From: Nitrospiria bacterium
GTDB taxonomy: Bacteria; Nitrospirota; Nitrospiria; SBBL01; JAADHI01
Direction: 5' to 3'
Length of the DNA stretch: 64,000 nucleotides
NCBI GenBank assembly: GCA_945787655.1
Contig: CALZIJ010000008.1
Location: forward strand, 26,644 to 90,643
Below the pieces are notes generated by a model. It saw nothing but the letters and a program-made list of their open reading frames with translations. It was not told the DNA's origin and searched no databases. A program made the translations under genes and the position numbers. Of the stretch, positions 1-63,237 are shown one piece after another; the first letter of the stretch is position 1; the number at the start of each line of letters is the position of its first letter.

Positions 1-2339
1 CCATTGCCGTCGTCAACGGCCACCACACTTCCGGCAGTGATTTGCATCGAATTTCTCTGAATATCATTGGAATTGAGTGTAAAGGAAAATACGCTTTTCA
101 CTCCATCCCCCGTGCCGGCATTTTCTTTGATCACGCTTGAAATCATGGACACCGAAAGCAAACGATCTAAAGAAAGTTCACCATCAATACCGATCATTTC
201 AGTTTCAATGATGCCATTGCCTGCGCTGTTCACGCCACCTGCTATCCAGATTCTATTGTCATTAAACGCATTAATTCCGGAAAAAACGGGAGGAACCGCA
301 TCTGATGTCGGCATCGTAAAGGTATTATCAGCAGAGCTTGTACTGTTCCCTGAAGCATCCTCGCTAATCACCCGGAAATTATAGGCCGTGCTGCCAGTCA
401 GGCCCGTAAGGGTCACGCTGTGGCTGGTTTTAAAGTCACTGTTTAAGGGGGAAGACAGTCCGTAACTAGGACTTGTTCCGTATTCAACTAAAGAGGTGGC
501 CGGTTCATCTGTGGTCCAGGTGATGACTGCTGTTGTGGTATTGACCAACCGGCTTGAAATAAGTGAAACGGCCGGTGCAGCCGCATCAACAGAGGCATCC
601 GTCGTAAAATTAAAATTCTCGGAAAAGGAGACATTTCCCGAAGGGTCAGTACTGAATACCCGGTAATTGTAGGTGGTGTCCAGCGTCAGTCCCCCCAGAA
701 TCACACTGTGGCTGGTTACCGGAGTACTGTTCACCTTGGAAACACTCCCGTAACTTGAGGTCAATCCATATTCCACAAAAGAGGTGGCCGGTTCATCACT
801 GGTCCAGATAATCGTCGCATTGGTACTCCCCGGAGAACCGCTAACACCGACACCGGATAACACAGGAGAACTCAGGTCAGATGTATTGAAGGTAAAATCA
901 CCGGAAAGATCGGCGTTGCCTGATGCATCCACACTTCTAACCTGATAATGGTATGTCGTCGAGGGATTTAAGCCGGACAAACGCACAATGTGCCGCGTTA
1001 CCAAGGTGGCATCAATCACCGGTGTTTCGGCATATGCCGTTGTTTCTCCGTAATTTACTTGCGAAGTGGCCGCCTCATCCGTATCCCACACAATAATGGC
1101 TTCCGACCCTGAAAGCCCGCCATCCGTCGCCGTATGGAACTTCCTTGGGTTGATTAAACGGCCAAAGGGCTGAAAACCTGTCAAGGCAATACGAAAAAGG
1201 TCATTGCCGCGCAATGAAAAATCGTTAAAAAGAAAGGCCCCGGCCGGCTCGTCAAAGTGATACAGTCCGTGAACGGTATTTCTTGCCCCTTCAATAAAGG
1301 GAGAATCGGGAAGCAAAAGCTCTTTCGGCGGATTAAAATCGGATGCCGCATACCGCAAATCCTGGGTCACCCGAACCTCGTCCGCCATGCCGACCCACAG
1401 GTTTTTGCCATCGGGACTTCCAACGGTAAAACGGCTTATGTTTTGGGCAAGCGCCGCGGGGGGCGTCACAATGCTCGAAACCGTTCCATCCAGTGCAATA
1501 TACGCCTGGTTATTGGTCCGATCAATCAGCAGGGCAATATGGTGCCATGCGCCCAGTGTGAGCGGATTGTTTGAAGTAGCTGTCACAGGGGTGCCGGAAG
1601 AAGGATACAGGCGGCCTTTAACTAAAAAATCGGTCCCGACGACCACATCAAAAACACCCTGTTTCCCCATTAAATAAGCATCGGCTGCGGGATTTGGAAG
1701 AGATGTGATAAAAAACCACCCTTCTGCGGATAATTCCATACTTCCGCCGATTCCCATCGAAATTGCAGAACGCCCAAAATGCTTGCCATCCATAATAAAC
1801 TTATTTCCGCTTCCTTCAAAAGCGCCAGGTGGACCAACGAGAACGGTTACTTCATCGGGTTCACTTGATAAGCCCTGGGCCACCGTCGGAATACTTCCGG
1901 TATCTGTGTTATCGGTATTTTGAATGTCTACTTCCGCCTCTTCAACCACAACCAGTTCAATACGATAGACCCCGTCCACATCCCCAATAAATGTTGGGGT
2001 CGGGCTTTCCGGGTCACTCAACTGGGTAGTGCTCCCTGGAGGAGAATCCAGAATACGCCACTGAAATTCAATGACATCCCCATCCGGGTCACTGCTGTTG
2101 GACCCATCCAGAGAGATCAATCCGCCGTTCCCTACATTTTGATCCGCGCCTGCATCGGCGATTGGGGGATTATTGGCCTTAAAAAGATCCTGCGGGCCGG
2201 GCTCATCATCGACACACCCTGGAAGAAAAAACAGGCCACATAACAATAAAATCCGCCCTATGCTTGCCCCATGACAATATAGTAATCCCCTAAAGGTTTT
2301 AATCGGGAATCCACTCTCTTTTTTCTGCTGCTTTTCCAC
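1..2339 (-). CDS. Giant surface lipoprotein, 3' end runs off window (PKD-like + LamG-like + at least 4 Fn3-like repeats)
   Basis: Absent from the ORF track because there is no stop inside the window. Hand translation of the minus strand is open from GTG at 2339-2337 down to base 1. The N-terminus ...GRILLLCGLFFLPGC is a signal peptide plus lipobox. It is followed by ADAGADQNV...LDGSNSSDPDGD (PKD-like) and LGAWHHIALLIDR...ADEVRV (LamG/concanavalin-like). Then come repeats of W.TDE.ATS.V.YG...TSHSV.L.GL...T.Y.YRV.S.D.SGN (Fn3-like). The start lies 7 nt after the stop of the upstream gene. Confidence 0.75.
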   Translation of the reverse strand, partial: MEKQQKKESGFPIKTFRGLLYCHGASIGRILLLCGLFFLPGCVDDEPGPQDLFKANNPPIADAGADQNVGNGGLISLDGSNSSDPDGDVIEFQWRILDSPPGSTTQLSDPESPTPTFIGDVDGVYRIELVVVEEAEVDIQNTDNTDTGSIPTVAQGLSSEPDEVTVLVGPPGAFEGSGNKFIMDGKHFGRSAISMGIGGSMELSAEGWFFITSLPNPAADAYLMGKQGVFDVVVGTDFLVKGRLYPSSGTPVTATSNNPLTLGAWHHIALLIDRTNNQAYIALDGTVSSIVTPPAALAQNISRFTVGSPDGKNLWVGMADEVRVTQDLRYAASDFNPPKELLLPDSPFIEGARNTVHGLYHFDEPAGAFLFNDFSLRGNDLFRIALTGFQPFGRLINPRKFHTATDGGLSGSEAIIVWDTDEAATSQVNYGETTAYAETPVIDATLVTRHIVRLSGLNPSTTYHYQVRSVDASGNADLSGDFTFNTSDLSSPVLSGVGVSGSPGSTNATIIWTSDEPATSFVEYGLTSSYGSVSKVNSTPVTSHSVILGGLTLDTTYNYRVFSTDPSGNVSFSENFNFTTDASVDAAAPAVSLISSRLVNTTTAVITWTTDEPATSLVEYGTSPSYGLSSPLNSDFKTSHSVTLTGLTGSTAYNFRVISEDASGNSTSSADNTFTMPTSDAVPPVFSGINAFNDNRIWIAGGVNSAGNGIIETEMIGIDGELSLDRLLSVSMISSVIKENAGTGDGVKSVFSFTLNSNDIQRNSMQITAGSVVAVDDGN

Positions 2340-2346
2340 TGACCTC

Positions 2347-5151
2347 CTATGGTGTAAATTGTGAAGCGGTTGTACTAATACTTGATATTTTTTCCGCCAA
2401 TTCCTTTCGGTTAAAACCATGAAAAGAAATCCCCTGCGCCTGAAAAGACGCCACTTCCCAAACAACCTCGGTTCCTGCAGAAAAAGGGTTCATTAAAACA
2501 TTCACCTCGCTTGGAAAAGGAGGCAGCTTAATTTCCTGAAGCGTACCCGGCACCCAGGCCTGCCAGAGAAGCATCCCGCCGGGACTCTTTACTCGGACCT
2601 GGTAGAGGTCCGCGGAACCCGCCCCCGCCCCTGGCACCCAGGAAAAAATCGGCTCCAGACCGACTGCCGTGGCACCGGACCCCGGACTCAGTAATACTGG
2701 CGGCTCTAAAAGGGACACATCCATTACCGATGGAATCTCTGGAAGACCCTGTATTAATGAATAACTGCTTTTACCGTCTGATGTGGATGCGGAAACCCCT
2801 AGAAAATAACTTTCAATTCCTTCAGATTCCGAAGAACGGATGCGATATTGAGATGCAGCCTCCCCTTTCAAAACACCGGTGTCCATTCCAGTGAAGACCC
2901 GGCCCTGTGGAACGATTGCGCCAATTGCTGTGACCCTAAGATCGCTGACCTGAAAACCCGAAGGCAGTGTAATCGCCCCGATCGTTTCCTTAAATTCAGG
3001 GCTTTGATCAAAAAAGAAATCAAAGGGCAGCCGCCCGGAAGGACCCAGCGGCCCCAGTCCCGATGAAAAAGTGAGATTATAAGACGCATCGGATTCCCCA
3101 ACGCGAAAAGCCGTGAACCCCAAGCGACGTTTTGATGCGCCAAAGCTGAGTCTGTAATCCCCGCCCCCTGTCGATTTTCCCATTCGAATGATATATTCCC
3201 CTTCAGTAAAAGGGGTAATCCCAACATCACCTGCTGTGTCGGATACACAATCGGCCGTACACTCCAGAGTATCCGCTCCGGAAAGTTCTAATGTCACTTC
3301 AGCAATTCCTGATCCATCAAAACCCTTCACAGAAAGCGGCGACGCAATAGACGCTGTCCCTCTTTTGATCAGCTCGACCAAGCGAACGCTATTGGCATAT
3401 ACGGGGATTGTCTGCCGGTCTATAAGGCCCCCGCCGCTGTCCCGAGCTGAGATTGTGTACATGTCCGATCCCGGAAATGCGGGAAGATCCAGTACAACGA
3501 ACCCACCGGATGCATCCGTCACACACACCCCTTCTCCAAAACGGCAAAGCAGGTTTCCCCCAATGTCTATTGCATAGGCCTTTCCTGCATCATTCCCGGA
3601 TTCATCAGTGACTCTGAGTTCGACATTGGCAGTGGCTTTGAGGTGTGGGTCTCCATTTTCATCCAGTGTCCCCGTCTTTTCGGAAATACGACCCAGAAAC
3701 TCGCCGTTGTTAGGCAAAAAACCCAAACGGATGGGCACATTACCGTCTTCATCCGTTCGCTCAGGGTCAGGAATCGCAGCCTGAATCACCATATTGGTTA
3801 AGGTATTCAGACGAACCACAGTCAAGGGGTAGTTTGATTTTGAACGATCTGAGAAAGAAACTTCCTGAAATGTCGCACGAAACCCGCTACCAGCGGAAAG
3901 AAATGCAACATAACGGCTATTGGGAAGGCGTCCCGAGGCGAAATAGTTCCCTGCGGTAACGACACCCTGATTCGCGACAAAAGACTCCTCAAAGGTATCC
4001 CCGGAAAAGTTGATCAAAGCACGTGCGACGCCGGTGTTCCCACTGCTCAAAGGCCCTAATAACTCTTCCTCCCGATAATCCGGACGAAACGCCACAACCC
4101 GCCCGTTAATACTCACAGTGCTGGACAGCGGTAAGACCAACAGATTAAGAATCGCGGTGCCTTCTGAGGGGAGCCGGAGAAAGTTTTGCCCCGCCCCGAT
4201 TCCTCTGCTGGCAGAATAAATCACCAAATCATTATTGGGCTGCAATTTCAGGAGCAGGAAGTACCCGTTTGAAGTGGTCGCATTCAAGTCAGGATCCAAT
4301 TCTAGAGGCGGATCCTCAGGTCCGGCAGGAGTCACCGTCTTAAAATAATAGGGTCGCCCTGCACTCGTCCCATTAAAATATTCAGCGAATACTTCCACTC
4401 CGGGCTGCGGCGTATTCTCTGAATTCACCACTTTCCCGAATACTGCAATTTGTCTGAAATTTTGCTGAACACCAGCAGCCTCCGCCCAGTTGTCCAAATC
4501 CTTGGCATAAATAAAGGTCAGGTCTTTCGGCGAGGACGAGTTAAAATCAATCCGTTGGTGAGTCAGGGAACGTGTCGGCCCAATTACACTAAAACCACCC
4601 AAGGCATCGATGACCGCATGAAACCCGGTTTCATCTTTTTCGGTATTAAATATCTTCCCTTCCAGCCTGCCGCTTGAAAGGGTCGTATCTCTGGGGACCA
4701 TGGGGATTGCTACGCGAGAAGCATTCACTTGATAAAAAGAAGTATTCTGATACAACAAGGGCAGCTGTGCATCCTCGCACCCCACACAGGCATACACATG
4801 AATGTCCTGCGGCCCGCTGACATCATCAAAGGTCGCTATCCCTTCAAAGGTGGTCGTTTCAGAACGGCCTTCCGTCCCTCCCAAAAAAACCTGGGCATTG
4901 GGAATAGGTCTCCGGACAGTATCGTCAAAAACCTGAACAACCAGTCTTCCTGAAATCGGTCCGCCGGCTGTTCCTCCATCTTTTGAAACCAGGGCCGGAG
5001 TAATATTGTGCTGTTCCGTGTTGCTGCAGGAAACCACTGAAAACAAGGCTCCTGCGAGGATACACAAAAACCAATAAGGCGAGACCATACCTTTACTCTT
5101 GGAAGACGCTTCGGTATTCACAATATATCTTTTTATTTCTGCTTTATTCAT
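2347..5151 (-). CDS. Large putative lipoprotein (934 aa), beta-sandwich-rich, function unknown
   Basis: Long ORF in the track. The N-terminus ...WFLCILAGALFSVVSC is a lipobox-like signal. Repeated segments such as GRLVVQVFDD...AQVFLGG resemble carboxypeptidase-regulatory-like folds. The ATG lies 5 nt after the stop of the TPR-barrel gene. Confidence 0.7.
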   Translation of the reverse strand: MNKAEIKRYIVNTEASSKSKGMVSPYWFLCILAGALFSVVSCSNTEQHNITPALVSKDGGTAGGPISGRLVVQVFDDTVRRPIPNAQVFLGGTEGRSETTTFEGIATFDDVSGPQDIHVYACVGCEDAQLPLLYQNTSFYQVNASRVAIPMVPRDTTLSSGRLEGKIFNTEKDETGFHAVIDALGGFSVIGPTRSLTHQRIDFNSSSPKDLTFIYAKDLDNWAEAAGVQQNFRQIAVFGKVVNSENTPQPGVEVFAEYFNGTSAGRPYYFKTVTPAGPEDPPLELDPDLNATTSNGYFLLLKLQPNNDLVIYSASRGIGAGQNFLRLPSEGTAILNLLVLPLSSTVSINGRVVAFRPDYREEELLGPLSSGNTGVARALINFSGDTFEESFVANQGVVTAGNYFASGRLPNSRYVAFLSAGSGFRATFQEVSFSDRSKSNYPLTVVRLNTLTNMVIQAAIPDPERTDEDGNVPIRLGFLPNNGEFLGRISEKTGTLDENGDPHLKATANVELRVTDESGNDAGKAYAIDIGGNLLCRFGEGVCVTDASGGFVVLDLPAFPGSDMYTISARDSGGGLIDRQTIPVYANSVRLVELIKRGTASIASPLSVKGFDGSGIAEVTLELSGADTLECTADCVSDTAGDVGITPFTEGEYIIRMGKSTGGGDYRLSFGASKRRLGFTAFRVGESDASYNLTFSSGLGPLGPSGRLPFDFFFDQSPEFKETIGAITLPSGFQVSDLRVTAIGAIVPQGRVFTGMDTGVLKGEAASQYRIRSSESEGIESYFLGVSASTSDGKSSYSLIQGLPEIPSVMDVSLLEPPVLLSPGSGATAVGLEPIFSWVPGAGAGSADLYQVRVKSPGGMLLWQAWVPGTLQEIKLPPFPSEVNVLMNPFSAGTEVVWEVASFQAQGISFHGFNRKELAEKISSISTTASQFTP

Positions 5152-5156
5152 AATCG

Positions 5157-8100
5157 TTAAAAGACCAGGCGGAGCCCGACAGTACCGATGATCTTCTCGT
5201 ATTTTCCCAGGGAACTGGTATTTCCCGACACCACGGCATTCTCCGTATCGGGTGGCACACTGCCCAGATTAGATTGATTCAATACCCAGGCCCCGTTCAC
5301 AAAAATCTGAATTCCTCTTTCCAGTCCAATGGTCAAGCCAAGACGGACGGAGTGACTTTCTCCAATCCGTTTTTTATTAAAACCTTCTTCCTGATAAATA
5401 TATGCTTTATATGAAAACTCGTATGAACTGTTGAATTGAATGCCGCGGAACAAGGCCCTGTCATAGATAATTGATGGCGCCGCGGAGACAAACGAAAATT
5501 TCTTCCCTTCGGGATTGAGGTTTAAATTGGCCGAAGTTCGTGTGCCCAGCGTTAAACGGCCGCCGGCCCACCCGTTAATAAAAAAGGATCCCGAAGCTGA
5601 CGGTTGGTACGCATCCAGATCGCTATTGTTAATCGAATCAAAAAGGCTGAACCGGACATCTCCCGCCACACTGAATCGATCCCCAAGGCTTTGAAATCCG
5701 GTCACCGCCAAGGAATGCCCCTGGCTTGAAAAAGCCCCTTCAAACAGGCTGAACAAGTATTCATATTCGACCGTCTTTCTTTTTTGATAGCCTCTCCACT
5801 CATGAAAAATCCGGTTTGAAGTGCTAAAAAAAGAAACTTGATCTTTAATATAACTTGATAAACTGGGTGAAATACGAAGCCCCAGACGTTTCCCTTCCCC
5901 CATATCATATATCCGCTGATATTGCCCCAAGAGACTCGAAAGAATATCACTGGATGGATCTTTGCTTAAAGTGACATTATTATCCACGGTGCTTTGATAA
6001 GTGACCGAAACATTGACAAAAAGGTGCCGTATCCGTTCTTCAATTTCTTCTCTAACCGCGTCCGGTAGGTCCGGGTCCTTTAAAACAACCTTGTAATGTT
6101 CGAGGGCATTTTTAACCTGCCCCACTTCTTCATACAAACTGGCCAGGCGGATACGTTTAGGACGGTCATCCGGCGACAGTTCAACGGCTTTTTTAAAGTG
6201 ACTCAGCGCTTGATTGGCATCTTTTAAGCGCAAGGCAATAAAACCTAAATTAAAGTATGCCATGGGTTCTTCGGGATCGAGAAAAAGGATCGTCTCAAAA
6301 TGAGCCTGGGCCTTTTCAATCTGGTCTTCCTGCCCTAAAACCACCCCTCTGAGCAAATGGTAACGAATCTGTGAAAATCGTGCTGTTTTTCCATGGACAA
6401 GCCACATCAGCGCGGCATAGTCGTTAACAGAATCCTTTTCCTCTCGTCCCATTTCCACCTGCTCCAACAGCACTTGCTCTATGATTTTATTGTTTTCTCC
6501 GGCCCGTTGCATTAAACCCGAAAATAGGGTTTTGGCCTCGTCTATTTTTTCATCCTGAGTATCTAGGATAAAACCTGTTTCGGACAACCCGGTAAAACTG
6601 GACAGATAATGGTCCGCCAAGATCGTATCACGCACCATGTTTAAGATTCTAGCAATCTGAATTCTGATAAGAATCAGATAGGTATTTTTATCTTTGGGAT
6701 CCAAAGCGACTACTTTTTCAAAAGCAGATGCAGCAGATTCCATCTCATTTATTTCGCGATAAAACACGCCCAGGTTATAAAAGTTCACGGGGTTATTCGG
6801 TTGGATTTCAAGAGCGGCCTTAAACCATTTTTCAGCCTCCTCAAATTTTGTCAAACCCATGGCAACCTTGGCATTGACTGAATAGAGACTGACCAGGGCA
6901 TTTTTCCCATCCGGACTATCTGCATTAACCTCCACCGCTTTTTCATAAAAAATAACCGCTTTTTCCAAATCCCCACTTTGCTCAGACATGCTCCCAAGAT
7001 GAATATAGGCTTTCTGATGACGCGGGTTCTCCGAAATGGTTTGCCGAAACGCCTTTTCGGCTTTCTGAAGGTCGCTTAACTCAAGATGGATCTTTCCGAT
7101 ATTAAAATAGATCGCGGCTTTCTCCCTTGAGAAGGTCAATGCTTTTTCAAAAATAGCCAACGCTTCTTTGATCCGGCCCTGAAGCGCGAGAGCACTTCCT
7201 TGAAGAAGAGGCAATTTTTGGTTCGCGCTGATCCCACCCGGCGTTCTGGGGTTAATTTCAACCGCCCGAATAAAAACCTGCAAGGCCTCATCCAGACGGC
7301 CTTGATTTTCGTACAGATTCCCCAAATTTAGATAAGCATCCTGGTGTCTGGGGTCCAATGAAACCACTTTCAAAAAAGCCTGTTCCGCATCCTGGAGCTG
7401 TTTTTTAATCGAATAAATTAAACCGATATTGTAATAAAGGGCAGCCTGTTCCCCCGAAAAAGAAAGGGCCCGCAAAAACAGAGTCAGGGCTTCATCCAAT
7501 CGCCCCTGGCGTGCGAGCAGGCGCCCCTGAAAAACAGGTATTTTGCTTCGAGCAATTTGGGCTCCCCGGCTCCTTGTATCAATTTCAAGGACTTTAAAAA
7601 AGACGTTAAGTGCCTCATCGATCCTGTTTTTCCGTTCGTAAAGAATACCTAAGCGGACGTAGGCTTCTTGGTGATTCGGGTGTATACGAATTACTTTCTT
7701 AAAGGCCGCTTCCGCCTGTTTATCATCTTCAAGTTGAAGATAAACCAGGCCAATATTATATTGCACCCCAGGATCATTTGGAGAAATCTGTTCTGCTGTC
7801 TTAAAAAATTTTAGCGCTTCTTCAAAATTTTGCGAACGCGCCTGCATAATCCCGTTAATCATATTGACTTTAAATTGGCTGATCGTTTTAATTTCATCTG
7901 CCGGATTTTGTTTTATCACTTGATCATATAGGGCTAAGGCCTCAGGCAGCTTTTGCGTGGCTTCATAAAGATCCGCCAAACGAAGATAAGCCTCAATCGC
8001 CGAAGGCGCCAGCCGGATCGTTTCTTTAAACGCCGCCTCCGCTTTTTCAATATCTCTTTTCTGCATATATCCAATACCCAGTTGAAGATGGATCTCGGCC

Positions 8101-8288
8101 TTATCCGGGAATTTTAATCGCATTGATTCAAAATGGGTGATAGAATCATCCCATTTCCCTTCTTTTATCAACCTGTTTCCTTCTTCCATCTGACTTGAAA
8201 ATACAGAATCAGAAAGTGTTTGAGCTGATGCAATCCCCGACAAAATGAGTATTACGATAACTGCCTGTGCACTGCATCGTTTTAACAT
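5157..8288 (-). CDS. Giant TPR-repeat protein fused to a C-terminal ~290-aa outer-membrane beta-barrel-like domain
   Basis: The track ORF is 5157..8330. I prefer the ATG at 8288 (MLKRCSAQAVIVILILSGIASAQ is a signal peptide), 5 nt after the stop of the upstream gene. About 750 aa carry TPR-type A..F......P....A...LG repeats. The tail has alternating-hydrophobic strands and ends ...GTVGLRLVF (terminal Phe, as in OMPs). Confidence 0.75.
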   Translation of the reverse strand: MLKRCSAQAVIVILILSGIASAQTLSDSVFSSQMEEGNRLIKEGKWDDSITHFESMRLKFPDKAEIHLQLGIGYMQKRDIEKAEAAFKETIRLAPSAIEAYLRLADLYEATQKLPEALALYDQVIKQNPADEIKTISQFKVNMINGIMQARSQNFEEALKFFKTAEQISPNDPGVQYNIGLVYLQLEDDKQAEAAFKKVIRIHPNHQEAYVRLGILYERKNRIDEALNVFFKVLEIDTRSRGAQIARSKIPVFQGRLLARQGRLDEALTLFLRALSFSGEQAALYYNIGLIYSIKKQLQDAEQAFLKVVSLDPRHQDAYLNLGNLYENQGRLDEALQVFIRAVEINPRTPGGISANQKLPLLQGSALALQGRIKEALAIFEKALTFSREKAAIYFNIGKIHLELSDLQKAEKAFRQTISENPRHQKAYIHLGSMSEQSGDLEKAVIFYEKAVEVNADSPDGKNALVSLYSVNAKVAMGLTKFEEAEKWFKAALEIQPNNPVNFYNLGVFYREINEMESAASAFEKVVALDPKDKNTYLILIRIQIARILNMVRDTILADHYLSSFTGLSETGFILDTQDEKIDEAKTLFSGLMQRAGENNKIIEQVLLEQVEMGREEKDSVNDYAALMWLVHGKTARFSQIRYHLLRGVVLGQEDQIEKAQAHFETILFLDPEEPMAYFNLGFIALRLKDANQALSHFKKAVELSPDDRPKRIRLASLYEEVGQVKNALEHYKVVLKDPDLPDAVREEIEERIRHLFVNVSVTYQSTVDNNVTLSKDPSSDILSSLLGQYQRIYDMGEGKRLGLRISPSLSSYIKDQVSFFSTSNRIFHEWRGYQKRKTVEYEYLFSLFEGAFSSQGHSLAVTGFQSLGDRFSVAGDVRFSLFDSINNSDLDAYQPSASGSFFINGWAGGRLTLGTRTSANLNLNPEGKKFSFVSAAPSIIYDRALFRGIQFNSSYEFSYKAYIYQEEGFNKKRIGESHSVRLGLTIGLERGIQIFVNGAWVLNQSNLGSVPPDTENAVVSGNTSSLGKYEKIIGTVGLRLVF

Positions 8289-8293
8289 CGAAT

Positions 8294-9118
8294 TCAAAAG
8301 AAAAACCGTATGGACCCTGTGATTTCCCATCCGCTTAAATCAATCACCAATGGCCGAGCCACATTATTTTCATCCCGATAAAAAACAGGACTCCCTTCCT
8401 CGGGAATAGAGCGATTCGCTCCAATCGCATCATCCACGGCATCCCGCTCTAAGAATGTATGACGAAAGGATTTATAAAATAATTGCCGGGTCTTACCCTT
8501 TCGATAAATAACATCTGCCCCAAGGGCAACCCACTTTCTCAGGAAGTATTCCCCTCCCAACCCCCATTCCAACATGTATCCACCCTTGCTTTCTGCGCGC
8601 GATAGAATGTTCCTCAAAAATTGTTGGTTCCCGTTATCAAATACATAATTGTAATCCTCACGATAAGTCACCTTGATCAAACTAAATAATCCAATATCAA
8701 TGTAGACCCGGTATTTTTTGGGTTCATCCAAAAAATGATATCTTCCGTGCAGCGCATATTCATTAAAAGAAACACGGGTGGTTCTTTTTGCCGTAAAGGG
8801 AATCATTCCAAAATCCTGAAACAACATCTCGCTTTCTTCAAACGCGGTAGATCGCCCTTCCCAAAACGAGCTTTTTATCAATAAAGAAAACCTGGGACGG
8901 ATACGCCATTCCACGCTCACCCCATGTAAAGGCCCACCGAGAATTCCAGGACTGCCTCCCACCCTGGGCGGCGTAAAAGTGGTTTGCTGCAGTTGCCCCT
9001 CGTTCAATAACTTTAATCTGGCCTGGCTGTAACCGGTGAATACCTGAACATTCCATTCGGCGAATGCTTCCGGGGGCGGCACCAAGATCCATATTAGATA
9101 CAAAATGAAAAAAGGCAC
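8294..9118 (-). CDS. Putative outer-membrane beta-barrel protein (274 aa)
   Basis: GTG start. The signal-like N-terminus ends ...PEAFA/EW. The sequence has alternating amphipathic strands rich in Y/G/R and a C-terminus ...GSIRFFF typical of BAM substrates. Confidence 0.6.
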   Translation of the reverse strand: MPFFILYLIWILVPPPEAFAEWNVQVFTGYSQARLKLLNEGQLQQTTFTPPRVGGSPGILGGPLHGVSVEWRIRPRFSLLIKSSFWEGRSTAFEESEMLFQDFGMIPFTAKRTTRVSFNEYALHGRYHFLDEPKKYRVYIDIGLFSLIKVTYREDYNYVFDNGNQQFLRNILSRAESKGGYMLEWGLGGEYFLRKWVALGADVIYRKGKTRQLFYKSFRHTFLERDAVDDAIGANRSIPEEGSPVFYRDENNVARPLVIDLSGWEITGSIRFFF

Positions 9119-9316
9119 TTAGTTCCTGCCCAGCAACAAACGATTATTTACAATATTACTTAATATTTTATCAACAAAGTATACCATATTCCCCAAATCC
9201 TGCTGAATTGATCCCCCAACAAAAACATAATAAAATATTTACTTTCAATTACTTATGAACATAAAAGCCTTGTTTACATTTTTATTTACATCAAGCACCC
9301 GAATTCTCCTGCCTTT

Positions 9317-10840
9317 TTAAAAGCTATACTTGATTTCGAAAAATATCCGATCCCGGTTGACAAAAGTCCCGACAAACTGGAAAAGCCGGTCATTTGCCGG
9401 GGCAGCCAAATCCGGCAGCAATGTCTCTTCATGTCCAAAGAAAAAATCCCCGCCCAAAGCCAGTTGGATATTATCCGTCAAGCGATAACTCGCTTTGGGT
9501 TTAAGTAAGATTTCTTCATTATTAATTAAGTAGAGGAAAAACACCTGACCGGTTAGTGCTCCCGAAATAAAGGTTTTTCTGGTAAAAAAACTGATAAAAG
9601 TATCGTATTGGTCCTGAAAGAAAACGGCTTTATGGTCAAAGATGATCCACTGGGATATCGCCAATGAATATTCATATCCAAACAGGCTGCTATCCACTTC
9701 GAGCCCCCATCGTATATGGTCTCTCTTTAAAGCGCCGTCGTGGTCCAATAGGTTATCTCCATCCAGATCCGCCAACCGGGTTCCAAAATATTTTCCGACA
9801 ATGTAGGATGCTTCTCCCTTTAATATGAAACTTTTTAGATTCGCCATAATTGCCGTTCCAAAAATGTGCATTCTTTTAAATTGCGGTTGGAAGACAGGCC
9901 CGCAATCAGGATCGGTTATTGGCTGATCAAACTGCAAGGCTGTCGGAATGCATTTTTGTGGAGGAGTTACAAACCTAAACCCTGTATATTTTCGAAACGG
10001 TGTAGGAAAGTCATCCCAGGTATAAAAATAGCTAAATGCCAAATCGAGCCCTTGGAATATCCTTTTAATACGAAATCCAGCTTCAGAATTTCTAAATGTT
10101 TGGGGAGGCTCTTTTTGACCTGGTAGTTCCTGAAACAATTCCCACTCCGAACCCGGTGGGGCCGGCTTATGCGGTGTAATTTCAGGAATCCACAATGCCT
10201 CGATTTGATATGATCCTGTATAATAATTCGCTTTGAGTGTCCAGAGCGGTATACGAAAATCGATTAAATCCGGCAGGATAAATTCTCTGAAATTGAGTGG
10301 GTTGATTTCATCAAGGATACGGAATCCAAGTAATTGTTCCCATATAATAATCTGCCGGCCTATCCTGAGATCCAGATTATCTATAGACCAATCCAGATAA
10401 AGCTCCCGGTATTCAACGAGTATCCTTTCATCTTCCTCAGCGCGCTGAGAGACAAAGGCCAAAGGCAGATTAGGGTCATTGGGAGGATTTACTGTGTCAT
10501 AGTCTGCAAAGAGATAAACAGCATCATACCAAGTCCAACCGGAAGCATATAATTTTAAATCTTGTGACAGATCCGCACTGCCTTCCAAATAGAGAATATT
10601 CCTGATTTTAGTAAAAGATACAGGTTCTCTAATTCGAAATGCGGTCTCATTTTTTAAATATCCCCCCCAGCTATAGGAAGGAAATCCATCTATATCCGCT
10701 GCCCACAATTTTATTGGGGGAAATAAAAAAAAAATGATAAAAATTAAGCATGAATACAATAATTCCGTCCCTATTCTCATACCATTCATTTTAACAGAAA
10801 AAACCAAGAACGGAGACTGGGAAAAGGACATTTTGGACAA
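9317..10840 (-). CDS. DUF1302-like outer-membrane beta-barrel protein
   Basis: The signal peptide ends ...PPIKLWA/AD; the true start may be the internal Met at 10789 or 10780. The motif YRELYLDW..DNLDLRIGRQIIIWEQ...ILDEINPLN matches my memory of the DUF1302/alginate-export style motif RxGRQxxxWGE...inP. The C-terminus is ...FFEIKYSF. Confidence 0.6.
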   Translation of the reverse strand: MSKMSFSQSPFLVFSVKMNGMRIGTELLYSCLIFIIFFLFPPIKLWAADIDGFPSYSWGGYLKNETAFRIREPVSFTKIRNILYLEGSADLSQDLKLYASGWTWYDAVYLFADYDTVNPPNDPNLPLAFVSQRAEEDERILVEYRELYLDWSIDNLDLRIGRQIIIWEQLLGFRILDEINPLNFREFILPDLIDFRIPLWTLKANYYTGSYQIEALWIPEITPHKPAPPGSEWELFQELPGQKEPPQTFRNSEAGFRIKRIFQGLDLAFSYFYTWDDFPTPFRKYTGFRFVTPPQKCIPTALQFDQPITDPDCGPVFQPQFKRMHIFGTAIMANLKSFILKGEASYIVGKYFGTRLADLDGDNLLDHDGALKRDHIRWGLEVDSSLFGYEYSLAISQWIIFDHKAVFFQDQYDTFISFFTRKTFISGALTGQVFFLYLINNEEILLKPKASYRLTDNIQLALGGDFFFGHEETLLPDLAAPANDRLFQFVGTFVNRDRIFFEIKYSF

Positions 10841-10892
10841 TGAGAACCGGTATAATTTTTACAGAAATCAGAATAGACCTTAAGGATATCTC

Positions 10893-10947
10893 AACAAAAA
10901 AAGGGTCTATGGATAAAATCATGTTTTGATTTCGTCCATAGACCCTT
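10893..10947 (-). terminator. Intrinsic terminator/attenuator inside the locus
   Basis: A perfect 13-bp inverted repeat, aagggtctatgga (10901-10913) / tccatagaccctt (10935-10947). On the minus strand it is followed by TTTTTTTGTT. It sits between the 216-aa gene and the DUF1302-like gene. Confidence 0.6.
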
Positions 10948-10968: not shown

Positions 10969-11619
10969 TTAGAAGTTTTGGTTCACAACAGCCGGGCTAC
11001 CTGTATCAAACAAAATACTTGAGCTAAATCCAGGTGTTCCAGGATCGCTTACCAGCTGATCAATACTCGTTGTAAAACCACCCGTACCATCTGGGGTCAG
11101 GGTTAAGTCATTACGATCCAAGCCTTGGCTGGGATCTAAAATGCTTTGCGTAACATTGATATCGGTTCCAACTAAATCAGCTTCTGTTCCTGTTCTTGCA
11201 ATGATATTCAGGTTATCCATTCTAACCAATACATCAACGGAAGGGACTCCGAGAGAATCTGTTGCTGCCTTAAGGCTTTGCTTAAACGTAATGTTATTGG
11301 TTGAAGTCGTTGTCGTCGCACCCGTAATAGCACCACCCGGGGTAAACGTTTCCTGAATAAACTCTGAACCTGTTGAGCCATCCGGTTTACTCCGGATAAT
11401 CATGTGGTTTAAAAGTTCCGTTCCAATCACGACTTGTTCTTGAAAAAATGTACTGTCACCAACACTTTCAAAAAGCCGGTTGGTCCCACCTGTAATTCCG
11501 CAAGTGGCCTGGCTGTTACAAGTGCCATCGTTAAACGACGTTGTTTGTGCTTCCACCATACCGGCAGACAAAAGGATACCCAAGCTTAATACACCCAGGA
11601 TTTTAAATTTTGATTTCAT
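10969..11619 (-). CDS. Small secreted protein, paralogue family member A (216 aa)
   Basis: Strong RBS (AGGAGG). Signal peptide MKSKFKILGVLSLGILLSAGMVEA/Q. It shares the motifs FFQEQV, SEFIQETF and ITFKQSL with the 242-aa neighbour. The mature part has two Cys. It ends ...VVNQNF. Confidence 0.7.
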   Translation of the reverse strand: MKSKFKILGVLSLGILLSAGMVEAQTTSFNDGTCNSQATCGITGGTNRLFESVGDSTFFQEQVVIGTELLNHMIIRSKPDGSTGSEFIQETFTPGGAITGATTTTSTNNITFKQSLKAATDSLGVPSVDVLVRMDNLNIIARTGTEADLVGTDINVTQSILDPSQGLDRNDLTLTPDGTGGFTTSIDQLVSDPGTPGFSSSILFDTGSPAVVNQNF

Positions 11620-11668
11620 TATTTATACCTCCTAATCAATGCGTTTTCCCAATTTAATCCTGCTGTCA

Positions 11669-12397
11669 TTATGGCCCTTGAACAATCACAGGGGAACCAC
11701 CGGTTGTAAAGTCCATATTTTGACTAAACACAGACACTCCAAGGCCGTCAACTACATTGACCTCTTGGGAAATGGTGGTACAGAAAGAAGCAGTCGCTCC
11801 GCATGAAGGGTCTGTTACTTCTTGACCTTTCACAGTGAAATTCGGAAGGATATCAACATTTGTAAAACTTAACCCTCCAGCCTGGCCCGAAATCGCAGCC
11901 GAACCATCGACCTGCTGATGAATGTGAATATCCTGCCCTGGATCCAGACTGGATGTCGTTGAAAAACCAGGACCACTCAAGGTTTGCCTAAATGAAATAC
12001 TGGTTTGAGCTGGGGCGGGGGTCACCGGAGCCGTCGTGTTATTTTGGTTGGTCGGACTCCGTTGAGACCCCATCAAAACAAAGGATTCCTGAATAAAGGA
12101 GCTTCCGACTGCAGAAGCTTCCATCACAGAGTGCACAGCCAGTTCGGGACCAGAACCGACATCAATGTTCACAAATTCCTGAGTAAAGAAACTTCCACTA
12201 CCCATTGTACCCTCTGAGACAACCAATTGCCCTGAAAGTGGGACTCCGCTTCCATCTATTCCAGAGTGAACAAATGGAAAAGGAGAGGGATTATCGCTAA
12301 ACGAAGGTGCCCCAACCTGGGCTTCAGACTTTCCGTATCCTGAAGCAATCAGAACACCTGATATTAATAGGAAGATTATTCCTTTTTTCAGATTCAT
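11669..12397 (-). CDS. Small secreted protein, paralogue family member B (242 aa)
   Basis: Strong RBS (AAGGAGG). The signal peptide ends ...GKSEA/Q. Motifs FFTQEFV, SSFIQESF and ISFRQTL are collinear with member A. The mature part has two Cys. Confidence 0.7.
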   Translation of the reverse strand: MNLKKGIIFLLISGVLIASGYGKSEAQVGAPSFSDNPSPFPFVHSGIDGSGVPLSGQLVVSEGTMGSGSFFTQEFVNIDVGSGPELAVHSVMEASAVGSSFIQESFVLMGSQRSPTNQNNTTAPVTPAPAQTSISFRQTLSGPGFSTTSSLDPGQDIHIHQQVDGSAAISGQAGGLSFTNVDILPNFTVKGQEVTDPSCGATASFCTTISQEVNVVDGLGVSVFSQNMDFTTGGSPVIVQGP

Positions 12398-12464
12398 ACC
12401 TTACCTCCTTTTAGTAAAAAAACAAGACAAAAACCACGTTACTACAAAAAAAAAAATTTTTCAA

Positions 12465-13577
12465 TCAAAATCCACCAAAACCACCACCCCCGCCGCCACT
12501 GCCATTCGGGAAATTAGTAGACAAACCGCTGCTAAAAGAATCACTCCCACTACCGCCCCATCGCTCCCAGTTAATCGGGGTGAGCTGGAAGTTATCGTCA
12601 TCGTGAACAGGAATCAAAGATCGGACTGAACTCGCCGCTCCACCGCCGGAACACCCGTCTCGAGTGCCCCGATCACTATTAAAATTAAAATTGCCTCTGT
12701 CGGCTGGATCGTTAAAATCATTACATCGGCTAAAATTAAGTAACTGGTTGTTGACGGGATCGACTATTTTGACCGCTTCCAGGTCATTCCACCAATCAAT
12801 CGTCCCATTACTTGGGCTTCCACCCCCAAAACCACCCCCGCCCCCGCCACCGGCAGGTATACTTACGGCGACATCATGAGAAAGATCTCCCGGGCTTAAG
12901 GTAAAATTTTGACTTTGTGTAATATCTAATGGCATCACACCTGCGAAGCTGGTCATCCAAACCCCGATATCCTGGCGCACCAGCACTTTCCCGGACGCAC
13001 TGTCAAAAAAAGGCACTTGACGAAAATGCATGTCCATCTGGTTTAGGCCGTTTGTCAGCTGCGCCACTTTCCTTTCTGTAATATCGGAATGAATACTCAC
13101 AGGCTGCCGGAAGCTGTCTATGACTGTTTTTTCTGTCAAGCCAAAGGCCGGGTCTGTGATTTCCTGACTGAAAATCAAGTTTCCCTCCGGGTCGTTGGTA
13201 CTGCCGGAACCAAATTTCGTATAACTCTCCATCGTAAAATCAGAGGAAGACATGCTTTGAAAAAAGAAACTTTCTCCACTGGAATTCGTCACCTTTCCCT
13301 GGGTAAATCCGGGGCTTTGCATCACATCTTCGACAACAAGCCCGGACACAGTTGCTGGATCAGTACCCCAAGGGGCAGGCGCATCAGATGCGAGGGGGGT
13401 TACAGTCGCTGCGGGAAGGGTTCTTGTAATGTTTCCACCTCCACCTCCACCTCCGCCTCCAAACTGCGCATAGGCCGGGGAAACGGAAACTATTGCAACC
13501 ACAGCAAACACCGGAAATAGTAGCGTATTTTTGTTTTTAAACCATTTTGTTGTATTTTGAAACGGCAACATACGCAC
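12465..13577 (-). CDS. Glycine-tract secreted protein, distant member C of the same family (370 aa)
   Basis: The signal peptide ends ...VSPAYA/QF. The start could be the ATG at 13571. Poly-Gly runs occur right after the cleavage site (QFGGGGGGGG), internally (AGGGGGGGFGGG) and at the C-terminus (GSGGGGGGFGGF). Motifs FFFQSM, LIFSQEI and FRQPV echo members A and B. Confidence 0.65.
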   Translation of the reverse strand: MRMLPFQNTTKWFKNKNTLLFPVFAVVAIVSVSPAYAQFGGGGGGGGGNITRTLPAATVTPLASDAPAPWGTDPATVSGLVVEDVMQSPGFTQGKVTNSSGESFFFQSMSSSDFTMESYTKFGSGSTNDPEGNLIFSQEITDPAFGLTEKTVIDSFRQPVSIHSDITERKVAQLTNGLNQMDMHFRQVPFFDSASGKVLVRQDIGVWMTSFAGVMPLDITQSQNFTLSPGDLSHDVAVSIPAGGGGGGGFGGGSPSNGTIDWWNDLEAVKIVDPVNNQLLNFSRCNDFNDPADRGNFNFNSDRGTRDGCSGGGAASSVRSLIPVHDDDNFQLTPINWERWGGSGSDSFSSGLSTNFPNGSGGGGGGFGGF

Positions 13578-13833
13578 ACTCGCATTTTGTCTCCCTTTGG
13601 TTAAAAAGAAGATGGAATAAGTACGGCTAAAACAGTCATTTTCTCCTTGATTCTCTCTACATATTTACAACAATTACTACTTTATTGCCAATATATACAA
13701 GGAAGCTTACCCTAGAAACGAGATAATGTCAATCACCAACATAACAAAAAAGTAATATTTTTTATCTTTTATAAATAATTCAAAATTCTATCTATCCACA
13801 GTTTAACTCTAAATTTGCTCATTTTTCCATATT

Positions 13834-16233: not shown

Positions 16234-17238
16234 TCAAGAAGGATTATTAGCTGTTTCAAGCGGGACTTCTCCTCCTGTTTCAGTATAAAGAATCGTTTGT
16301 TTTGTTCCGGTCACCCAACCCATGTTTTGATTGGTAAAATGAACGCCGGTTAAAAATTGAAGGGTGCCGGTGGTTTGCTGCTCCCAGGTTTCCCCGCCAT
16401 CTTTTGTTTGCAATACCGTTCCGCCCGCGCCCACAACCCAGCCATGAAGCTCATCAACAAAAGAGACATCGGTCAGCAAAGAAGTCAAACTGCTTTTTTG
16501 AGGGGTCCAACTGACTCCGGCATCCATCGTCTTGAGAATGATGCCGCCATTTCCAACAATCCAGCCCGTTTGATCATTCACGAAAAAAATGCGGAGCAAG
16601 TCCCTATTGGTTCCCGTTTCCCGCAATGACCAATTTTTACCCCCATTATTCGTGACAAGCAGATTCCCTTTGTGGCCTGTGATCCATCCGTGATCGGGAT
16701 CAGTAAACAAAACCGAATTCATTGTTAAGCGGGAATCTCCCTCGGCCTTCTGCCAATGCAAACCGCCATCATCGGTAGATAGCAGATTGCCTTTAACCCC
16801 GGTCACCCAGCCCTGTTTTTCGTTAATAAAATAAACTGAGGTGAGATCTTTTTTAACACCGCTGGATTGCGGCCCCCAGGTTTTTCCTCCATCGGATGTA
16901 TGTGCAATCAGGCCGCGATCTCCGACCGCCCATCCCAGTTGTTCATTCAGAAAAAAGGTGGAAACAATCAACACCTTTGTCCCCGTTTCCTGGACAACCC
17001 AATCTTTCCCGCCATTTTCTGTGTGCAGAATAACCCCTTTATTACCCGTGACCCAGCCTTTTTTATCATTCAGAAAAAATATCCCGCCCAAAGACGTATC
17101 CACGGGAACCGCTTGTAACTCCCAGCCGGTTGAAATTTCCGATCGATCCGGCATTTCAGGCGGTCTGGGACACCCTGCGATTAAAAACCCCAGAAACACC
17201 CATAATAATGCTTTTGCTTGCGTTTTCGTCAGATTCAT
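16234..17238 (-). CDS. Ycf48/BNR-like beta-propeller lipoprotein
   Basis: The track ORF extends to 17343. I prefer the Met at 17238 (MNLTKTQAKALLWVFLGFLIAGC contains a lipobox). Repeated units read GW.VG..G.I..T.DGG..W. Confidence 0.7.
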   Translation of the reverse strand: MNLTKTQAKALLWVFLGFLIAGCPRPPEMPDRSEISTGWELQAVPVDTSLGGIFFLNDKKGWVTGNKGVILHTENGGKDWVVQETGTKVLIVSTFFLNEQLGWAVGDRGLIAHTSDGGKTWGPQSSGVKKDLTSVYFINEKQGWVTGVKGNLLSTDDGGLHWQKAEGDSRLTMNSVLFTDPDHGWITGHKGNLLVTNNGGKNWSLRETGTNRDLLRIFFVNDQTGWIVGNGGIILKTMDAGVSWTPQKSSLTSLLTDVSFVDELHGWVVGAGGTVLQTKDGGETWEQQTTGTLQFLTGVHFTNQNMGWVTGTKQTILYTETGGEVPLETANNPS

Positions 17239-17269
17239 TTTTTCAGAATTCCACTCTAAGTATCCGCCC

Positions 17270-18253
17270 TTACTGAACGTTTGATAATGTCCAGGGTTCT
17301 TCCTGGTTTTCTTTTTTATAAATCCCCCGCATGGTCCCGGCAAACAGGGTATTGTTTTTCAATGGGTGGGAAGCAACGGTCAATACAGACTTGGGGGATT
17401 GGGAAAGCAACTGCCAGGATTCACCCCCGTCTTTCGATTCATAAACCCCATCATTATTGCCAACGTAAACAATATTGGGGTCTTTTTTATCCACAGAAAT
17501 GGACGAAACAAACTTGGTGGAAAGCCCGTTGTTGCGTTCCTCCCAGTGCGCACCCAGGTCTGTTGATTTAAAGACGCCTTTATTCGTCCCGGCATAAATC
17601 ACCTTGGGGTTAACCGGGTCAAACTGAACGTTGTTCACCGCCCATTCTTTTGTTTCCCGCGATGTGATCCGCCATTGTCTTGCAGAGTTCGTTGTGATAT
17701 ACACCCCTTCGTTTGTCCCTGCCAAAATCACGGATCGGCTTTGCGGATTAAAAGCAAGTGAAATCACGAAACGATTTGCCATGCCCATATTGGCATCCCG
17801 CCACTGACTCCCGCCGTCCGTTGTCAAATAAATCCCGTGGTTCGTACCCACATACACCCGTTTGGATTCTACCGGATCGACGATCACCGCATTCACGGCC
17901 TGTGTTCCGACATTATCATCAAGCCCACGATTCGCAATGTTCCAATGCCCGCCACTGTCAATACTTCGATAAACACTGTCCCCATACGTCCCTGTATATA
18001 TAACAGAGGAAAGAGATGGGGTCACCGCAATCGAGACGATGTTGTAGGAGGTTAAGCCCTCGTTGGTTTTATTAAAGGTATTTCCACCATCCATACTTTT
18101 ATAAAAGCCTCCACCAGAGGTTCCGATATATACAATCTCTGGTTTATGATAACTAAAACCGATCGAGAAAACATTGACCCGTTGTTCACAGCCTGCCAGA
18201 AGGGTTAAAACTAGCGAAATAATTAATTTAAAAACAGGGTAAGGCCGCACCAT
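17270..18253 (-). CDS. BNR/sortilin-type beta-propeller lipoprotein
   Basis: The track ORF extends to 18307. The internal Met gives MVRPYPVFKLIISLVLTLLAGC (lipobox). Repeated S.DGG..W BNR motifs include DGGNTF, SGGHW, DGGSQW, LGAHW and DGGESW. Confidence 0.7.
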   Translation of the reverse strand: MVRPYPVFKLIISLVLTLLAGCEQRVNVFSIGFSYHKPEIVYIGTSGGGFYKSMDGGNTFNKTNEGLTSYNIVSIAVTPSLSSVIYTGTYGDSVYRSIDSGGHWNIANRGLDDNVGTQAVNAVIVDPVESKRVYVGTNHGIYLTTDGGSQWRDANMGMANRFVISLAFNPQSRSVILAGTNEGVYITTNSARQWRITSRETKEWAVNNVQFDPVNPKVIYAGTNKGVFKSTDLGAHWEERNNGLSTKFVSSISVDKKDPNIVYVGNNDGVYESKDGGESWQLLSQSPKSVLTVASHPLKNNTLFAGTMRGIYKKENQEEPWTLSNVQ

Positions 18254-18530
18254 ATTTAGTCCTGAAAATACCCTAGGCATCGTATCATATCTTGTTAAGA
18301 TAGACAATCAATGGGCATCATCCACCTTATACCTCAGATATTGATCTTTTCCAGCCCCTTGCGGACCTCATTCTCCCGGAGATTCAAAGGCACCACTTGG
18401 TTTTTTGCGGAACGATCTATTTTTATCAAAAGAGTTTCGCAGACCTGTAAAGATAGACCCTGATCAATCGAGGGAACCCGCGCCCTCATCCGACAGGATC
18501 AAAGGGGAAACCGTCATCGACTGTCCTTCA

Positions 18531-26328: not shown

Positions 26329-26391
26329 TTTTCCTATTCCCCCTCTTAAATCAAATTCCATCAAAATGGGATGTATATTTCCCAAAAGAGA

Positions 26392-27393: not shown

Positions 27394-27426
27394 AATCAGT
27401 CTGCCTCCTTTTTTCATTTCTGAAAC

Positions 27427-28707: not shown

Positions 28708-28797
28708 ACTATCTCCTCTATTCCTCTATTTCTGCATTCACTCTTTCTGGCAGAGGAGAGACTCTCTCCTCTGCCAGCACAATCAATCCTCTATTAA

Positions 28798-30741: not shown

Positions 30742-30873
30742 TAATTTTTCCTCCTCAAGGAAATTTAAGGAAAGTGAACACAACCACCTTTCCCTGCCTG
30801 ACCATTAAAACCTTCTTTATTGAGCTTCACTACTCCACAGCTCATTCATCTCAAATCTTTAATTCCTCGGAAA

Positions 30874-48810: not shown

Positions 48811-48840
48811 AAACGCCGATGACGATTGGAGAAATTGTGC

Positions 48841-49977: not shown

Positions 49978-50009
49978 TAAATTAACGGCGTTATAAGGAG
50001 GATTAGTCA

Positions 50010-51212: not shown

Positions 51213-51295
51213 AGGGAAACCGCCGGTTCTAAAGATTAGACTTCTTTAATGAAGAAAGATAGTACCGGCACATATTAGAGCGGGCCAATTCCAAA

Positions 51296-53035: not shown

Positions 53036-53049
53036 CGGGTTCATAAATT

Positions 53050-63167: not shown

Positions 63168-63237
63168 TATGTTCTCCTTAAAAAAGGGCAAAAGATTTCA
63201 AATTATTTTAGCATAGGCTTTTTTTTCTTGCCATTGT

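Follow-up and report, generated by a model that had tools for sequence, protein, structure and literature searches.

In the curli (csgBA with csgDEFG) and Fap (fapA-F) systems, two or three small paralogous subunits, which are Sec-dependent, rich in Gln, Asn, Gly, Ser and Thr and poor in basic residues, are encoded next to the genes of dedicated outer-membrane channels and are transcribed so as to provide subunit in excess. We analyzed a 64,000-nucleotide (nt) stretch of the genome of a Nitrospiria bacterium (contig CALZIJ010000008.1 of assembly GCA_945787655.1; hereafter the window, whose numbering is used unless another locus is named), in which three genes on the minus strand, p370 (12465..13577), p242 (11669..12397) and p216 (10969..11619), have ftsY as their upstream neighbor and adjoin a set of genes for outer-membrane barrels. 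The three genes are named for products of 370, 242 and 216 amino acids (aa), and their families were labeled A3, A2 and A1, respectively, in profile comparisons. Like the curli and Fap subunits, the trio proteins appear to be small paralogous Sec substrates encoded in a transcription unit of their own beside outer-membrane barrel genes; a separate unit would be the arrangement used where subunits must outnumber the machinery that assembles them, and as a set of paralogues the trio resembles a family of major and minor subunits. By contrast, no Curlin or Fap model of Pfam or NCBIfam matched the trio or 84 family members; the tandem imperfect repeats of curli (four or five of 19–23 residues) have no counterpart in the trio (z = 0.1–1.0 for internal repeats); the neighboring genes encode a DUF1302 barrel, a 274-aa barrel and a tetratricopeptide repeat (TPR)-barrel protein instead of homologues of CsgG, CsgE, CsgF or FapF/FapD; and Cys pairs are present, with structure models suggesting an antiparallel meander rather than a β-solenoid. 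The overall logic thus looks familiar from curli and Fap, yet every comparison that would place the locus in either system came out negative. Our favored, though tentative, reading is that the trio proteins may be secreted in large amounts to serve as structural subunits of a lineage-specific assembly in the envelope or at the surface, which the barrels would serve.

An initial annotation of the window, made from the sequence alone, had described the three proteins as acidic, rich in Ser, Thr, Gly and Asn, poor in Lys and Arg, and endowed with exactly two Cys residues per mature chain; the open reading frames (ORFs) and all of these features were confirmed. A Sec-type signal peptide, which ends AYA|QF in p370, is predicted in each protein, and Gln opens each mature chain. 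In the family alignments, this A|Q cleavage junction is invariant across the 216 family and nearly invariant across the 242 family. The mature chains have isoelectric points (pI) of 4.05, 4.07 and 4.34, contain 4.2, 1.4 and 5.1% Lys plus Arg and 39–43% Ser, Thr, Gly and Asn, and have a grand average of hydropathy (GRAVY) of about 0; p216 and p242 each contain no Trp and no Tyr. The Cys pair is conserved inside each family and differs in position between families (C34-x5-C40 in p216, C199-x6-C206 in p242 and C285-x23-C309 in p370). As for the C-termini, p216 ends in ...VVNQNF and p242 in ...VIVQGP; the terminal Phe that had been pointed out in two of the proteins is invariant only in the 216 family, whereas members of the 370 family other than p370 end otherwise. 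In p370, poly-Gly tracts occupy the mature N-terminus, the middle of the chain and the C-terminus (residues 39–47, 243–253 and 358–370; QFGGGGGGGGN, AGGGGGGGFGGGS and GSGGGGGGFGGF, respectively). The length of these tracts differs widely between homologues, and the central one is absent from some of them.

We then compared the three proteins with one another. On sequence comparison, p216 and p242 are true paralogues: they are 27% identical in BLASTP (E 3e-6), and their family profiles align over nearly the full length with a probability of 98.8% in hhalign (E 1e-16). The collinear motif pairs previously listed for these two proteins were present in both the BLASTP and the profile alignments. 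No BLASTP similarity was detected between p370 and p216 or p242. At the profile level, p370 residues ~80–166 are collinear with the FFxQE / FxQE / xFxQ region of p216 and p242 (hhalign E 7e-5 for the 370 against the 242 family and 1e-3 for the 370 against the 216 family). Calibration against column-shuffled profiles (n = 110 per comparison) gave scores of 40.5 for A2 against A3 (shuffled 15.5 ± 2.6, maximum 27.3) and 28.1 for A1 against A3 (shuffled 15.4 ± 2.6, maximum 22.6), and none of the 110 shuffles reached the real score in either case. Because the real scores exceed those of every shuffled control, p370 appears to be a remote paralogue of p216 and p242 over a single N-terminal β module of ~85 residues, a weak match that nevertheless stands well above the controls. 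The C-terminal ~200 residues of p370, which contain the invariant C285 and C309, are unrelated to p216 and p242. The triad of paralogues proposed by the initial annotation is thus clear for p216 and p242, and extends to p370 only remotely and over the N-terminal module.

F-x-Q motifs are more frequent in each of the three proteins than in shuffles of its residues (p = 0.012, 0.017 and 0.002). In each of the three family alignments, no residue type is better conserved than Phe and Gln: conservation of at least 90% was found for 10 of 11 Phe and 7 of 10 Gln in the 216 family, for 12 of 15 Phe and 12 of 16 Gln in the 242 family, and for 9 of 14 Gln in the 370 family, compared with a baseline of 30–39% for all residues. 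Within the 216 family, Q60, Q89, Q114, Q158, Q188 and Q214 are invariant, as is the C-terminal Q-x-F; the first five of these positions had been reported exactly. The 242 family is marked by invariant F-x-Q-E-x-F, I-x-F-R-Q and I-H-I-x-Q motifs. Across both families, F58/Q60, F87/Q89/E90/F92, F112/Q114, Q188 and Q214 are invariant in 54 of 54 sequences, so that Gln is kept throughout at five hydrophobic-x-Gln positions, three of which are F-x-Q. The regular spacing of Gln had earlier been taken to suggest a repetitive β-solenoid. This reading is not supported, since the best off-diagonal score in profile self-alignments lay within the range of the shuffles and the low-confidence AlphaFold models do not show a solenoid. 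The lack of a profile-level repeat indicates that the recurrence of F-x-Q is a per-strand structural signature rather than the trace of a duplicated unit, and in the p216 model the motifs are located within predicted strands. The proteins may still form a fibre. Two AlphaFold models were obtained, both of them all-β, with strands of 7–15 residues and short connections, consistent with an antiparallel meander. In both, the only confident stretch (predicted local distance difference test score [pLDDT] 82–87) is the N-terminal module of four or five strands, and the C-terminal halves have a pLDDT of ~50. The coincidence of this confident stretch with the hhalign match suggests that the trio shares one N-terminal β module.

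Next, we searched for signals that control transcription of the trio. A σ70-type promoter is predicted upstream of p370 on the minus strand (13704..13732), with a −35 box TTGACA (13732–13727), a 17-nt spacer and a −10 box TAAGCT (13709–13704); an AT-rich tract lies directly upstream. The −10 box matches at three of six positions, hence it was overlooked by a simple promoter scanner. The p370 homologue is likewise preceded by TTGACA, a 17-nt spacer and TAnnnT in each of the five other loci examined (−10 boxes TAGAAT, TATAAT, TAGAGT in two loci, and TAGATT), and this layout is kept though the proteins are only 52–74% identical. Directly 3′ of the p216 stop codon we found an intrinsic terminator (10896..10947, minus strand) that consists of a 13-bp outer stem and an inner stem followed by U7, with a folding energy of −30.6 kcal/mol (z = −6.2 compared with shuffles). 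Its loop exceeds 8 nt, hence it escaped a simple terminator scanner. Seven related loci likewise have a strong hairpin at this place, built from different stem sequences. As a conserved promoter lies upstream of p370 and a conserved terminator between p216 and the barrel genes, the trio is a predicted independent transcription unit in which transcription would largely end before the barrel genes. This bracketing implies that the trio and the barrels differ in stoichiometry, with the trio probably in excess, and trio expression is probably high. Selection on the three genes is strongly purifying (ratio of nonsynonymous to synonymous substitution rates, dN/dS, ~0.05–0.17, which is approximate because dS was saturated against both relatives compared, leaving dN as the other usable measure). 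The dN values of p216 and p242 are below that of the housekeeping gene ftsY (0.098 for p216 against its homologue in locus L006, compared with 0.181 for FtsY), and within the cluster conservation is highest for p216.

The initial annotation had assigned the trio to no known family, and our searches bore this out. None of the three proteins matched a Pfam (E ≤ 1) or NCBIfam model, and neither did any of 84 family members at E ≤ 10; profile searches of the PDB with the trio families returned nothing; and Foldseek comparison of the two low-confidence models with the PDB gave best E values of 0.49 and 0.025, all with TM scores below 0.22. With nothing detectably related to them, the p216/p242 and p370 families appear to be two new protein families. 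Searches among 5.8 billion clustered proteins retrieved ~28–30 homologues per trio protein, and a joint p216/p242 profile found 12 among 1.84 billion representative proteins. When each GTDB species was represented by one genome, a scan detected six loci, all in Nitrospirota, including two complete genomes of Candidatus (Ca.) Manganitrophaceae/Manganitrophus; Ca. M. noduliformans also has the cluster, with the trio homologues at about 1,906,200–1,909,100 of VTOW01000001 and WP_168059121 as the homologue of p242. In these searches, the trio was found only in manganese-oxidizing Nitrospirota (Ca. Manganitrophaceae) and their kin, to which it would thus be limited. Literature searches for the trio proteins and their accessions found nothing. 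One database name was considered and set aside: the Manganitrophus homologue of p242 (A0A7X6DPB4) carries a CHRD domain in its automatic UniProt name, and no Pfam CHRD match was found in 54 members, including P0034, at E ≤ 10. The remotest profile match (P0094; 295 aa; E 5e-4) covers the N-terminal module only. It is encoded at positions 10001–10888 of locus L016 and 438–1325 of locus L017, in an unrelated setting without barrel genes; the match reflects either very distant kinship with the module or chance.

Downstream of the trio, and likewise on the minus strand, lie five genes for putative envelope proteins. The first encodes a 507-aa outer-membrane barrel of the DUF1302 family (9317..10840; ending ...KYSF), which matches Pfam PF06980 (E 1.2e-14; 54.7 bits compared with a cut-off of 23.2) over profile positions 80–362 of 541 only. 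The same match is on record for the DUF1302 homologues of related loci, and the protein is 64–80% identical across syntenic loci. The second product, of 274 aa (8294..9118), has a signal peptide and ends in ...IRFFF; it is a putative small outer-membrane barrel by its sequence features only, is syntenic everywhere, and had no Pfam, NCBIfam or PDB match. The third is a 1057-aa TPR-barrel protein (5157..8330; ending ...GLRLVF), which comprises ~750 residues with 13–14 TPR units (TPR families at E 1e-87) and a C-terminal putative barrel of ~285 residues without Pfam or PDB match. Its gene overlaps that of the 274-aa barrel by 37 nt (8294–8330), which suggests translational coupling of the two. 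Next come a 934-aa lipoprotein (2347..5151) with a lipobox (...VVSC) and a CarboxypepD_reg-like domain, also syntenic, and the 5′ part of a gene for another large lipoprotein (...FLPGC; 1..2300), which runs off the window and whose homologues have PKD, Laminin_G_3, Kelch and FN3-like repeats. The synthase-dependent exopolysaccharide exporters PelB, BcsC, PgaA and AlgK/AlgE likewise combine an extended TPR array with a barrel at the C-terminus, and the DUF1302 barrel resembles AlgE in its predicted fold, an 18-strand AlgE/Occ-like channel (PMC13499233). Unlike those exporters, the 1057-aa protein remained far below the NCBIfam cut-offs for BcsC (60.7 compared with 858) and PgaA (56.5 compared with 366.65), and neither the cluster nor the rest of the window ORFs that were scanned yielded a glycosyltransferase or synthase.

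Synteny was assessed in six GTDB species, five of which show the barrels, in metagenomic contigs and in one divergent lineage. The order p370, p242, p216, DUF1302 barrel, 274-aa barrel, TPR-barrel protein and ~900-aa lipoprotein is kept in every locus that is long enough, and the PKD/LamG lipoprotein comes next wherever the fetched locus extends that far. In the divergent lineage, a p216-like gene is directly followed by the same five downstream genes. The gap between p216 and the DUF1302 gene measures 128 nt in the window compared with ~650 nt in the Manganitrophus genomes (loci L001, L008 and L009); in L001, a 109-aa ORF is called within it (11741–12070).

Taken together, these observations lead us to propose the following model. 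One strongly transcribed unit would give rise to three Sec-exported, disulfide-containing, all-β proteins, which would serve in large numbers as the structural subunits of an envelope or cell-surface assembly found solely in Nitrospirota of the Ca. Manganitrophaceae type. In the shared N-terminal module, Phe and Gln would lie on the same face of successive strands, and this F-x-Q module may serve as a common assembly or recognition surface in which the Gln side chains form a hydrogen-bonded ladder beside a stripe of Phe. The AlgE/Occ-like DUF1302 barrel, the small barrel, the TPR-barrel protein and the two large lipoproteins would then export and/or anchor the subunits. We hold the model tentatively because we infer the high abundance of the trio proteins, their export beyond the periplasm and their self-assembly, and we assign the barrels as their machinery on the same footing. 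Several observations also weigh against it. The Cys pair of p370 delimits a 24-residue disulfide loop that would hinder threading through a narrow porin, and DUF1302 barrels elsewhere are tied to lipid and ester phenotypes, not to protein export (bioRxiv 10.1101/2020.07.04.188060). No CsgG, FapF, usher, chaperone or other known component of protein-fibre secretion was found in the Pfam and NCBIfam scans of the cluster, and internal repeats such as those of curli and Fap subunits are missing from the trio. Both AlphaFold models are of low confidence (pLDDT 60.3 and predicted TM score [pTM] 0.53 for one, pLDDT 54.6 and pTM 0.42 for the other), and codon bias was uninformative as a proxy for expression, the effective number of codons (Nc) being 52–58 for the trio and 54 for the window median. 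Moreover, the trio is not an obligatory set: in locus L007 (Nitrospiria metagenome-assembled genome D_2_bin.8; 8905–9143) p370 is missing from its syntenic place between ftsY and p242 with the three barrels kept, and in locus L013 (a divergent metagenomic contig; 408–2356) a p370-like gene is directly followed by a p216-like gene without p242 between them. The latter arrangement suggests that p242 may be a later duplicate.

The main rival of the subunit model holds that the trio proteins assist the barrels as accessory subunits located in, or facing, the periplasm (a plug, cap or carrier) and replace the LolA-like DUF1329 protein in a system that moves a lipid or another hydrophobic envelope component. 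DUF1302 genes usually adjoin DUF1329 genes, and the two products are predicted to form a complex (PMC13499233). In this respect the cluster is comparable to the DUF1302/DUF1329 pair of Pseudomonas and other Proteobacteria, with a DUF1302 barrel next to secreted partners; neither the cluster genes nor the rest of the scanned window ORFs yielded a DUF1329 protein, the adjoining place is taken by the small proteins, and three small proteins match three barrels in number. In Pseudomonas, fitness data tie DUF1302/DUF1329 to genes for BNR-domain and RND proteins and to fatty-ester phenotypes (bioRxiv 10.1101/2020.07.04.188060), and the window and closer relatives have two genes for Ycf48/BNR-like lipoproteins 3 kb upstream, a further likeness to the Pseudomonas co-fitness set. 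However, in the Manganitrophus loci the BNR genes were not found within the 10 kb fetched upstream, the scanned window ORFs included no RND transporter, and the cluster differs from the DUF1302/DUF1329 system in that neither a DUF1329 gene nor an RND transporter or LuxR regulator was found among the genes examined; instead, it has three unrelated small acidic partners, two further barrels and two giant lipoproteins. Neither do the trio proteins have sequence similarity to DUF1329 or LolA, and with E > 3 the Foldseek matches to LolA, RseB and lipocalins amount to noise. In addition, a strong conserved terminator parts the trio from the barrel genes, which would be unexpected for 1:1 complexes, and the small proteins vary between two and three while all three barrels stay in L007. 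We consider this explanation doubtful, though it deserves to be kept in mind beside the subunit model.

It is distinctly improbable that the trio proteins are instead the surface cargo of a Slam/type XI-like translocon formed by the TPR-barrel protein, which would bring each of them to the cell surface as a folded β domain, as with TbpB, fHbp or hemophilin. The cluster shares with Slam/type XI systems a TPR-plus-barrel outer-membrane protein beside genes for secreted β-rich proteins, the 1057-aa protein has the TPR-then-barrel order and matches the Slam TPR model (PF24575 TPR_Slam; 39.7 bits compared with a cut-off of 35.2), the C-terminal aromatic residue of the p216 family is invariant, and TbpB and fHbp chains are among the Foldseek matches of the p216 model. 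Against this, cross-matches between TPR families are to be expected with 13–14 TPR units, and the TPR region of Slam proteins is about five times shorter than that of the 1057-aa protein, whose C-terminal 287 residues gave no match to DUF560, the 14-strand barrel of the Slam translocon, even at E ≤ 10. With E values of 0.6–2, probabilities of 0.03–0.08 and TM scores of 0.12–0.16, the TbpB and fHbp chains retrieved by Foldseek are no more than noise, no TbpBBD (the C-terminal eight-strand barrel domain of TbpB-type cargo) or related cargo domain was detected with Pfam, and the two large downstream lipoproteins would be equally plausible as cargo. An all-β prediction and the invariant terminal Phe of the p216 family could also be read as signs that the trio proteins are themselves small integral outer-membrane β-barrels, and an eight-strand barrel had been offered as an option by the initial annotation. 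As membrane barrels, however, p216 and p242 would have no aromatic girdle, since they lack Trp and Tyr altogether compared with 21–36 Trp plus Tyr in the adjoining barrels. Likewise, the GRAVY of about 0 and the 39–43% Ser, Thr, Gly and Asn are at odds with such a location, the ...V-N-Q-N-F end of p216 lacks, as we read it, the alternating hydrophobic pattern of a β-signal, and p242 ends in Q-G-P. The absence of Trp and Tyr, together with these C-terminal sequences, makes integral barrels very unlikely.

Two further ideas were dropped. Cross-links of the Thr–Gln ester or Lys isopeptide type, such as are associated with an HxDxxDxxQ-type context, were considered as the role of the conserved Gln residues; by sequence, this context appears to be absent from the trio, and Lys is almost absent as well. 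The stalk-formation (sfz) clusters of iron oxidizers were considered as an analogy, and the accounts looked up contained no protein-level description with which to compare the trio.

Returning to the subunit model, a bolder version of it, which we regard as unlikely, is that the trio proteins are the building material of a previously unknown protein matrix, sheath or fibre, peculiar to manganese-oxidizing Nitrospirota and their kin, delivered by a new outer-membrane export route and tied to manganese lithotrophy. If so, the subunits would adopt a new fold, with Phe/Gln ladders holding it together; their acidity, the near absence of Lys and Arg and, in p216 and p242, the lack of Trp and Tyr would suit threading through an AlgE-like DUF1302 porin; and the polyanionic layer that they build could bind Mn(II) or stop Mn oxide from encrusting the cell. 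To our knowledge, Ca. Manganitrophus is the only demonstrated manganese chemolithoautotroph, and we know of no account of how insoluble Mn oxide is handled at its surface. The envelope cluster, which was found only in this lineage and its relatives and is under strong constraint, offers a specific and testable candidate for a surface structure peculiar to them. It also attaches a new kind of partner to the uncharacterized DUF1302 barrel family, for which we know of no solved structure and no established function. Should the trio proteins prove to be ordinary periplasmic factors of low abundance, the interest of the locus would be limited to two new orphan families.

Other features of the window were recorded along with the cluster. 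Closer relatives retain, upstream of phoH-ybeY-ftsY and the cluster, the two adjacent genes for Ycf48/PSII_BNR-like lipoproteins (16234–18307, minus strand), whose products of 369 and 345 aa match Pfam at E 5e-43 and 3e-10, with a Sortilin-Vps10 match in addition. Divergent from them is a gene for a T2SSE-family ATPase (18584–20494, plus strand), which is found at the same place in locus L004, where the homologue has MshEN and zinc-ribbon Pfam matches. Two genes for cytochrome bd-like subunits I (661 and 636 aa) are located at 25030–30783 and 32627–34537, the first in a gene run that also encodes a di-haem cytochrome c (451 aa) and a pair of proteins without Pfam match; this run resembles the unusual terminal-oxidase clusters of Manganitrophaceae (PMC9040806). 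A type IV pilus block (46999–54453) encodes a PilB-like ATPase (T2SSE plus MshEN) and includes two genes for products of ~390 aa, continuing with a PilS-like histidine kinase and a σ54 PilR-like regulator. A GAF-GGDEF diguanylate cyclase is encoded at 59365–60492, and secA at 60477–63191.

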